Source: Escherichia coli (GTDB lineage Bacteria; Pseudomonadota; Gammaproteobacteria; Enterobacterales; Enterobacteriaceae). Taken from it: a stretch of DNA of 64,000 nucleotides. This document shows, piece after piece, positions 59,272-61,398 of this stretch. A model generated the notes under the pieces. That model did no database searches, was not told where the DNA came from, and saw nothing but the letters and a program-made list of their open reading frames with translations. Within the stretch, counting starts at the first letter, position 1. Each line of letters starts with the position of its first letter. Location of the stretch: NCBI RefSeq assembly GCF_050320075.1, contig NZ_CP190018.1; one strand, written 5' to 3'. Both the position numbers and the translations under genes were made by a program.

Positions 59272-61398
59272 TTAGTCCTCGTTTACAACCTTTTGCTGGG
59301 CGGCTTTTTTGGCCTGAACGCGGGCAATAGCCGCGGCAACTGCCGCTTTGCGCGGATCAACCTGTTCTTCTGGTTCCGCATTGGCCTTTTGCTGTTCCAG
59401 CTTGCGTGCTTTGGCGCGGGCAATAGCGGCTTCGACGGCGGCTTTGCGCGGATCGACCTGTTCTTCTGGTTCCGCATTAGCCTGTTGCTGTTCCAGCTTG
59501 CGTGCTTTGGCACGGGCAATAGCGGCTTCGACGGCGGCTTTGCGCGGGTCAACCTTTTCTTCTGGCTCCGCATTAGCCTGTTGCTGCTCCAGCTTGCGCG
59601 CTTTGGCGCGGGCGATAGCGGCTTCGACGGCGGCTTTGCGCGGGTCAACCTGTTCTTCTGGCTTCGCATTAGCCTGTTGCTGCTCCAGCTTGCGTGCTTT
59701 GGCGCGGGCGATAGCGGCTTCAACTGCGGTTTTACGTGGATCAGCAACGGTTGCTGCGTCGTTAGTTTGCTGCAGTTCTGCCTGTTTCGCTCTGGCTTGC
59801 GCTTTACGGGCTTCTCGTACTGCAATAATTGCACTGTTATCCGGGCGTTCGCCCGCTTTAATCACAATCGGCTGTGTAGCCTGGGCCTGTTTCTCTTTCA
59901 CCCGCGCCAGAGCGGCAGCAATCGCATCTTTATCTTTGGCTGCAGGTTGAACGGCTGCGCTCTTATGTCGTTCAAGGCGAGCCGCTTTTTCGCGCTCCAG
60001 ACGAGCCTGGCGCGCTTCGAAACGCGCTTTGGCTTCTGCGGCGCGCTTTTCTTCCTGATGAATAGCCGCAATTTCAGCTTTTTCCTGACGGAAATATTGC
60101 ACCAGGGGAATATTGCTCGGGCAAACCCACGCGCAAGCCCCACATTCAATGCAGTCGGCAATGTTATGCGTGGTAGCTTTATCGTGTTGCTGACCTTTGC
60201 TGAACCAGTACAACTGTTGCGGCAAAAGATCCGCAGGGCAGGCGTCAGCACAGGCGCTACACCGGATGCAGCTTTGTTCTTCCTGTGGTTCGCCAAGCTC
60301 ATTGGCAGAGGGAGCCAACAGACAGTTGGTAATCTTTACGACCGGGACATCCAGCCATGGCAAGGTAAAGCCCATTAGCGGGCCGCCCATAATCACCATT
60401 TGATCGGCAGAGGGGCAGAATCCGGCGTCATTCAATAAATGACGCACTGGCGTCCCCAGCCGTGCCCAGACGTTGCCCGGGCGAGCGATTGCTTCGCCAG
60501 TCAGGGTTACGACACGCTCGGTAATCGGCTCGCCATCAATAACGGCACGTTTCACTGCATAAGCAGTGCCGACGTTTTGCATTAATACGCCGATATCGGA
60601 TGAACGCCCGCCATGTGGAACCTGCTTCCCGGTCAGAATGTAGGTTAATTGTTTAGCACCGCCAGAAGGATATTTAGTTGGAATCACCCGCAGAGAAATA
60701 TCGTGAGAGTCCGCCAGCACCGCGCGGAGCATGGAAATCGCCTGCGGTTTGTTATCTTCAATGCCGATAAGAATTTCGCGTGGCTGCAGAATATGCGCAA
60801 GAATGCGAATACCCTCTACGACCTGAGCCGCGCAATCCTGCATCAAACGGTCATCGGCGGTAATGTACGGCTCGCACTCAGCAGCGTTGATAATCAACGT
60901 TTCAATCTTATCTCCGCCGCCCTGCAATTTAACGCCTGTCGGGAATCCCGCACCACCCAGCCCGGCAACACCAAACTGATGAATGCGCTCGATTAACTCT
61001 TCGCGACTGCGAGAGCGATAATCGTCCCAGCCGTCGCGCGGGATCCAGCAGTCTTCGCCATCAGCATCAATAATCACGCTTAATTCAGCTAAAGCTGAAG
61101 GATGAGCCGTAGAGTGGGGCGCAATAGCCGTAACGGTACCCGAGGTGGGCGCGTGAACTGGCAGCATTTTGCCGCGTCCACGGGTAAGCGGCTGGCCGCG
61201 CAGTACTTTATCGCCGACGCTAACGCACAACTCACCTTCAGAGCCAATATGTTGTTTCAGTGGTATGACAAAACGCTGCGCCAGGGGTACCTGGCGCAGG
61301 GGCGTACCGTTGGACTGGGTTTTCATCTCCGGTGGATGGATGCCGCCGTTGAAATCCCAGATTTTATTTTTTCTGAATGCAGAGAATAACTTAAGCAT
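59272..61398 (-). CDS. rsxC: Rsx/Rnf complex subunit C with C-terminal 32-aa tandem repeats; 708 aa in this allele
   Basis: Two 4Fe-4S motifs ([24 protein letters not shown]); repetitive C-terminal tail. Confidence 0.93.
59275..59742. repeat. 96-bp in-frame tandem repeat, 4 full copies plus a diverged 84-bp partial copy, inside rsxC
   Basis: Protein repeat [32 protein letters not shown] x4 with point differences; DNA period 96 confirmed on the plus strand. Confidence 0.9.

Follow-up and report, generated by a model that had tools for sequence, protein, structure and literature searches.

A protein-coding minisatellite of 32-residue units in the C-terminal tail of Escherichia coli RsxC

The rsxC gene of the E. 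coli genome considered here ends in a run of near-identical 96-bp units, and this raises the question of whether the copy number read from the assembly is genuine, how that number changes between strains, and what a repetitive tail might contribute to a subunit of a well-studied redox complex. Coordinates refer to the window, by which we mean the whole 64,000-nucleotide stretch of DNA that was analysed, and are collected in Table 1. The reading we favour, with a probability of roughly 0.85, is that the array is a protein-coding minisatellite (VNTR) in the RsxC tail, and that this tail probably serves in docking, its extra copies being close to neutral.

The identity of the gene is secure. The rsxC product is subunit C of an Rnf-type ion-translocating oxidoreductase, in which the expected barrel, FMN/NADH and two 4Fe-4S features are all found: it scores 866 bits against NCBIfam NF003454 (cut-off 345) and 596 bits against TIGR01945 (rnfC), contains the Pfam domains RnfC_N (PF13375), Complex1_51K (PF01512), SLBB and Fer4 (PF12838), and carries CxxCxxCxxxCP motifs at aa 377-388 and 416-427. 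The gene lies in an rsxA-B-C-D-G-E-nth operon on the minus strand (56255-62550), whose ORF sizes and order match expectation and agree with the RefSeq annotation both of identical DNA and of DH10B. The rsx operon of the window does not include rnfH. Within the array region, an Rfam scan returned no families, and a promoter/terminator scan returned no excess of promoter- or terminator-like sites.

Tandem Repeats Finder (TRF) reported a single array at 59319-59743, with a period of 96, 4.4 copies, 91% matches and no indels. Read in the rsxC frame, the C-terminus consists of four units of 96 bp and 32 aa followed by a diverged terminal copy of 28 aa and the stop codon (59274-59272), as the first-pass annotation had proposed from the letters alone. 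Its limits for the repeats, 59275 (the first base after the stop codon) and 59742 (the first base of unit 1), were also correct, and the translated units read as it had given them. The four full units differ from one another at 5-12 of 96 bases. At the protein level each begins DPRK[T/A] and ends [Q/K]ANA[K/E]PEE[Q/K]V, and in the alleles examined the Thr at position 5 is always present in the first unit. The terminal copy is, of all the copies, the one nearest to the motif consensus of the wider protein family.

Table 1. Positions of the repeat units, neighbouring tail elements, typing primers and genes at the rsxC locus (window coordinates; TRF, Tandem Repeats Finder).
Feature	Position	Strand	Basis or remark
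rsxC CDS, 708 aa	59272..61398	minus	ORF; NADH/FMN + 2x[4Fe-4S] subunit of the Rsx/Rnf complex
Long Glu/Arg/Lys-rich helix, aa 430-480	59959..60111	minus	directly after the ferredoxin domain; AlphaFold2 helix 432-483, pLDDT ~85-95
Degenerate upstream motif copy, aa 489-506	59881..59934	minus	position conserved in other RnfC tails; AlphaFold2 helix 490-505
ms11 forward primer GAAACAGGCCCAGGCTACAC	59874..59893	minus	exact single match; primer from PMC8215070 Table 1
Conserved basic 'PDNS...' helix, aa 519-544	59767..59844	minus	between upstream motif copy and array; AlphaFold2 helix 522-547
Repeat unit 1, aa 553-584	59647..59742	minus	TRF and rsxC-frame translation
Repeat unit 2, aa 585-616	59551..59646	minus	TRF and rsxC-frame translation
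Repeat unit 3, aa 617-648	59455..59550	minus	TRF and rsxC-frame translation
Repeat unit 4, aa 649-680	59359..59454	minus	TRF and rsxC-frame translation
Terminal diverged copy, aa 681-708	59275..59358	minus	in every allele examined
rsxD	58213..59271	minus	ATG directly abuts the rsxC stop (TAAATG)
ms11 reverse primer CTGGCGCTGGTTATGGGTAT	59224..59243	plus	exact single match, inside rsxD; published primer

Each unit is made of a basic, Ala-rich segment of about 20 residues predicted to be helical (net charge +4) and an acidic, Pro-containing linker of about 12 residues (net charge -4), such that the whole E. coli unit is charge-neutral overall. In order to see how the tail might be organized we turned to AlphaFold2, run with 21 sequences. 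The model has a confident core, then the three helices that precede the array (Table 1), then one helix per unit, in line with the earlier suggestion of a helical extension. The tail is predicted with modest confidence and on an unreliable repeat alignment, with pLDDT of 60-77 for the unit helices and below 50 for the linkers between them, which are modelled as disordered. No packing of the tail helices is predicted in this single-chain model. Experimental structures stop short of the region of interest, as the RnfC chains in the PDB comprise only 435-496 aa and end before the repeats; likewise, no Pfam family covers the RsxC tail.

Is the count of four genuine? Together with its terminal copy the array measures 468 bp, which exceeds typical short reads, and the four units could in principle be a longer array collapsed during short-read assembly. 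Difficulties of this sort do occur around the repeat: 13 of 80 draft-genome loci of other species stop inside the rnfC tail, and one TOP10 assembly shows a private six-unit array against five units in the DH10B reference. Against this, at least 45 complete genomes, drawn from unrelated projects, many laboratories, and different hosts and countries, share the 1,001-bp segment that spans the four-unit array at 100% identity, and 128 genomes share it at 99% identity or more; four units were counted in 1,033 of 5,401 complete genomes; and the differences between units help an assembler to place them. Because the allele recurs unchanged in at least 45 independent complete genomes, assembly collapse in the window is very unlikely, to the point of being close to negligible.

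Megablast with a segment that contained the repeat gave no copy numbers, because the matched pieces overlap inside the repeat, and it was replaced by queries built from the flanks only. With a query of 600 + 600 bp of flanking sequence, the genome span minus 1,200 gives the array length. Applied to a spread sample of 59 genomes, this gave four units in 14, five in 34, six in seven and seven in four. Size thresholds were set using the rule that matched pieces are joined only up to a distance of 500 bases plus half the query length, with 300-bp flanks moved outward. All complete E. coli genomes that could be joined when the threshold was raised to about 11 units made up the scorable set of 5,401. 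Counted cumulatively, 98 of these have at most three units, 1,131 at most four, 4,380 at most five, 4,912 at most six and all 5,401 at most seven, and arrays of eight or more units were found in none of them. Expressed as shares of this set, which is drawn from complete RefSeq genomes and over-represents clinical clones, 1.8% have 0-3 units, 19.1% four, 60.2% five, 9.9% six and 9.1% seven. Five units is therefore the mode, found across phylogroups, and the four-unit class to which the window belongs is the second commonest. The 60 listed genomes with three units or fewer divide into 27 with three, 17 with two, 15 with one (mostly O121:H19) and a single genome with none.

Counting units across E. 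coli was the check that the first-pass annotation had proposed, and the result bears out its expectation that the number varies between strains, here from zero to seven among complete genomes, and refutes uniformity. Its statement that the K-12 product is one unit longer also holds, since rsxC of DH1 and of DH10B is 2,223 bp, encoding 740 aa with five full units. K-12 derivatives likewise have five units. The sampled O157:H7 genomes all have six, as does one O55:H7 genome; O121 has one and O104:H4 three; and seven units were found in a named ST131 genome together with three others that have identical flank scores. Unit number is thus mostly stable inside clonal lineages and different between them. 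No variation in count was seen among the sampled O157:H7 genomes, among the sampled K-12 genomes or across the ST131 genome and its three flank-matched companions, the one deviation being the TOP10 assembly mentioned above. A laboratory expansion may lie behind that six-unit allele; DH10B has the normal K-12 allele, and the TOP10 allele is confined to that one assembly.

To gain insight into how the array changes, we translated 16 alleles, which together cover 0-7 units. Each of them remains in frame and closes with the same diverged C-terminal copy, and the alleles examined open with the DPRKT unit. Labelling distinct DNA units by number makes the individual events legible. ST131 reads [9,10,11,12,13,14,15|16] and AVS0790, with the same flanks, reads [9,10,14,15|16], a clean loss of three units. 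O104:H4 reads [6,37,38|5] against [6,38|5] in CEA224S; O121 reads [39|5], with units 6 and 38 combined in the chimeric unit 39; and CFSAN004176 reads [40], in which unit 6 and the terminal copy (5) form a single chimeric unit. JCC-EE7 and FELIX_MS533 have unit 2 duplicated relative to K-12. Smaller changes are found as well, namely a 12-bp in-frame deletion within one unit of SW071619 and one extra Gln codon in some B2 units. The four-unit alleles of UTI89, AVS0790 and the window are composed of different units, and by this comparison four-unit alleles have arisen more than once (homoplasy).

The clean unit deletions and chimeric units show that, on the alleles compared, the array is a coding VNTR in which units come and go whole and in register, as had been anticipated from the near-identity of the repeats. 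In mechanistic terms, units that are long and about 90% alike would allow misaligned pairing in register, through either replication slippage or unequal recombination, by which whole units would be added or removed. In all alleles examined the array stays in frame and keeps both its first unit and its terminal copy. Since counts are uniform within repeatedly sampled clones, the array appears to behave as a slow minisatellite and not as a phase-variable switch. The latter would shift the frame or the promoter spacing, and here the unit is 32 codons long and the same C-terminus is found in the 16 alleles.

This bears directly on a rival reading, in which the array would act as a contingency locus or adaptive tuning knob, with fast and selected changes in copy number setting the activity of Rsx, and hence the set-point of the SoxR/oxidative-stress response, to suit the niche. 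The differing counts of the pathotypes (one unit in O121, three in O104:H4, six in O157:H7 and seven in ST131) would suit such a role. In addition, olaquindox selection has yielded a non-frameshift deletion in rsxC (PMC7696260), and RsxC is among the features associated with O157:H7 outcome in a machine-learning study (PMC12711010), a listing that leaves room for a phenotypic effect. Neither paper ties its effect to unit number, and the literature searched linked no phenotype to rsxC copy number. A unit of 96 = 3 x 32 bases provides no on/off switch, and five units prevail in 60% of genomes across phylogroups. As no allele examined shifts frame and the sampled clones are uniform, we reject the contingency-locus reading and consider it distinctly improbable. 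A modest tuning effect of unit number may nevertheless exist.

The polymorphism itself is already known, for the locus is the MLVA marker ms11, in use since 2008. Reportedly, ms11 belongs to the E. coli/Shigella MLVA panel of Gorge et al. 2008. The two ms11 primers each match the window exactly and once (Table 1); they converge, and the predicted amplicon in the window is 670 bp. In PMC8215070, which credits the primers to an earlier Shigella and E. coli typing panel, ms11 is described as a 96-bp repeat (Table 2 of that paper) with alleles of about 4.5-7 units, and a later primer table names the locus "ms11 (rsxC)" (PMC11773471). The marker and the array in the window share locus, primers, 96-bp unit and polymorphism between strains, with no structural difference, and the published allele sizes agree with our counts of 4-7 full units and a partial copy. 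Both typing papers use ms11 as an anonymous marker of fragment size, and neither takes up the protein motif. What our census adds to ms11 is a genome-wide account of unit numbers (0-7) and their frequencies, which is a detail. The combination of differences between lineages and stability within clones explains why the locus works as a typing marker. E. coli MLVA also uses repeat markers inside other housekeeping genes, namely CVN004 in tolA and CVN001 in ftsK (PMC11773471).

A closely related case is RsxC of Erwinia amylovora, in which a 40-aa unit starting from aa 553 is present in 0-5 copies among strains and has been proposed as a VNTR marker (PMC10587187). The Erwinia repeat begins at the same protein position as that of E. 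coli and its first 16 residues are identical. The two differ in unit length (40 against 32 aa) and in the linker, which is Ala/Pro/Gln-rich in Erwinia (AAQAAPAAADKAAPVQQPAAEQ) and different in E. coli. This Erwinia study was also the only paper in the searchable literature to contain the motif string.

The same division between a constant helix and a changeable linker is seen among the E. coli units. Across 30 distinct units, pS is about 0.33 and pN/pS is 0.04 within the helix motif (codons 1-18), compared with 0.17 in the linker (codons 19-32). Judged by these ratios, the motif is shown to be under strong purifying selection and to be ancient; with synonymous change frequent and non-synonymous change rare, the units are old copies constrained to a single amino acid sequence. 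The long ORFs in other frames (59167-60378 and 59348-59950 on the plus strand, 59283-59834 on the minus strand) were dismissed as by-products of a stop-poor repeat; selection acts in the rsxC frame.

In order to establish how widely the motif is distributed, the tail was searched against 1.84 billion representative proteins, which gave 135 matches. Full-length tail matches are RnfC-like proteins of 587-971 aa with tails starting near residue 438, each having its own tandem period around a common core. Two matches outside RnfC (P0114 and P0118) were discarded as weak low-complexity matches, and the motif is confined essentially to RnfC-like proteins among the representatives searched. The E. 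coli tail shares with these proteins the arrangement of C-terminal tandem units that each start DP[KR]. A logo of 114 instances from 20 RnfC representatives opens D-[PD]-[KR] and has an almost invariant core, and the RnfC proteins behind it are only 41-67% identical overall. Two of the RnfC-like matches lie in rnfABCDGE-nth operons, with DNA arrays of 108- and 81-bp period and about 90% matches.

A scan of one genome per species yielded 80 named loci, with motif counts taken from about 45 named genomes. The motif is present in Enterobacterales (Citrobacter, Enterobacter, Yersinia, Photorhabdus, Providencia and Rosenbergiella), Pasteurellales, Vibrionales, Alteromonadales and Aeromonadales, at between one and at least 11 copies per RnfC tail and with a spacing of about 27-65 aa within arrays. 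Units in Citrobacter are 31 aa long, and their first 22 residues are those of E. coli. The tandem tails of Pseudomonadales and Oceanospirillales are different ones, in which a related basic helix (ALKKAKIDAAMLRAQLRKLEK) occurs. Among symbionts with reduced genomes, one copy is kept in two of the three checked (Arsenophonus and Pantoea sp. Nvir); the third, Ca. Photodesmus, gave a single weak motif match that is not evident in its tail sequence. The motif is thus conserved across several gammaproteobacterial orders, and it is unit length, linker sequence and copy number that drift.

These data allow a second alternative to be weighed, namely that only the composition and length of the tail matter: it would be a low-complexity spacer or entropic bristle that works independently of its sequence, and the repeats would be neutral filler. 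A spacer would explain why 0-7 copies are tolerated in E. coli, why linkers differ freely in length and sequence from one genus to another, and why AlphaFold2 packs the tail helices against nothing. It would not explain a pN/pS of 0.04 alongside a synonymous divergence of about 0.33 between units, a core that stays almost invariant over such divergent RnfC proteins, or the retention of at least one copy in two of three reduced genomes. Residue identity is held too tightly for a pure spacer, and we reject that reading as improbable.

A more specific proposal is that the basic helix of about 20 residues is a conserved module through which gammaproteobacterial RnfC/RsxC binds in a sequence-specific way, and that it has been re-amplified independently in many lineages. 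We put this forward tentatively, at a little less than even odds. If it is true, the valency of the motif would set the efficiency with which a partner is captured, for instance an acidic ferredoxin or flavodoxin, SoxR, another Rsx subunit or the membrane surface.

The position of the tail offers some further guidance. RnfC of A. vinelandii (PDB 8ahx chain C, 496 aa) aligns with residues 15-500 of E. coli RsxC and is without a repeat array, and every one of the E. coli repeats falls outside the portion that has been solved; the Clostridium and Acetobacterium RnfC chains are shorter still. The elongated C-terminal helix of the A. vinelandii protein contacts RnfB and RnfH (Zhang and Einsle 2024, as cited in PMC12174285). 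The long helix predicted at 432-483 in E. coli is the part that aligns with this helix, the comparison here covering sequence and a single-chain model. Our literature search on what the RsxC/RnfC tail does turned up a single remark, in a 2025 review (PMC12174285), which describes the role of the A. vinelandii helix as not yet understood.

Based on this, we picture the RsxC tail as a series of basic helices joined by flexible acidic linkers, extending from the cytoplasmic NADH-binding subunit and placed beyond the long helix that in A. vinelandii makes the contacts with RnfB and RnfH. Its composition, conservation and position suggest that it is most likely a multivalent, low-affinity docking or tethering module. 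Candidate partners would be acidic redox partners, other Rsx subunits or an anionic membrane surface. One terminal copy would be sufficient for the basic function, and further copies would be nearly neutral, because so wide a range is tolerated, from 0-7 units in E. coli to single-copy symbionts. Of specialist interest here is only the presence of a conserved and repeatedly re-amplified helix motif in a well-studied redox complex, and the natural E. coli allelic series of 0-7 copies is ready material for testing the motif.

The array is also of practical relevance. It is useful as a typing marker that can be read on an agarose gel, and it is a trap for short-read assembly, as the broken tails among the drafts of other species illustrate. 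It can mislead annotation as well, in that intact rsxC alleles with zero or one unit are flagged as pseudogenes.

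Array length in rsxC is polymorphic among E. coli, and for this reason alleles carrying no unit or one unit of the 32-aa repeat are recorded by RefSeq/PGAP as pseudogenes, 'incomplete; missing C-terminus' (L007, NZ_CP014583.1; L008, NZ_CP028110.1, the latter from an O121 strain). The frames of both genes are unbroken and end at the usual ...QQKVVNED and stop, and the pseudogene label is an annotation artefact.

The TOP10 assembly NZ_CP080620.1 (L003) carries a six-unit K-12-type array, [0,1,1,1,3,4|5] in numbered distinct DNA units with the terminal diverged copy after the bar, encoding a protein of 772 aa, whereas the DH10B reference NC_010473.1 encodes the ordinary five-unit K-12 protein of 740 aa. 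The six-unit TOP10 allele is private to this one assembly among 5,424; either the array expanded while the recA1 stock was kept in the laboratory, or the assembly is wrong at this point.

In 13 of 80 loci from the scan of genome contigs (listed in the table), the contig runs out within the rnfC tail; one of these is Escherichia albertii NBRC 107761, where the tail is cut at '...DPRKA'. The RnfC-tail repeat is commonly a break point of draft assemblies. The E. coli rsxC repeat is free of stop codons in its other frames, which mechanically generates ORFs of 183-403 aa (one is given in the table). The 736-aa database 'protein' P0008 is E. coli RsxC with its tail translated in a shifted frame, probably through an indel error in some assembly.

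Features with coordinates, and loci broken within the rnfC tail
Feature	Record or locus	Position (strand)
rsxC of the DH10B reference	L099	25515-27737
Example of a shifted-frame ORF in the repeat	Window	59283-59834 (-)
Segment holding the rsxC allele shared with other genomes	Window	59100-60100
Loci broken within the rnfC tail	L019, L021, L027, L029, L039, L042, L043, L044, L050, L053, L054, L056, L091

In the E. coli genome searches, the two rsxC flanks could not be joined in 23 genomes, and 2 of 5,426 genomes gave no match whatever. Plasmid-labelled records were also seen to hold from one to eight matching places. These cases may reflect rearrangements, records that start inside the gene (e.g. 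CMZE027) or loss of the locus. The window allele recurs at 100% identity in genomes of gull, river-water and dog isolates and in others from OXA-48/ESBL surveillance collections; these genomes probably resemble the ST38 (phylogroup D) clone.

Tandemly repeated RnfC tails are also found in Pseudomonas sp. SJZ079, Stutzerimonas stutzeri and Marinobacterium marinum (L066, L070 and L071), in proteins of 766-1,023 aa. These Pseudomonadales/Oceanospirillales tails are built of longer units that include a related basic helix, ALKKAKIDAAMLRAQLRKLEK; none of the three tails was scored by the motif HMM. In Enterobacter cloacae DSM 26481 (L026, NZ_CP056117.1), rsxC encodes just 554 aa and closes with an unrelated ...GAEGAKRQTGSRCRSA shortly before the expected repeat, which suggests a frameshift, whether genuine or a sequencing error.
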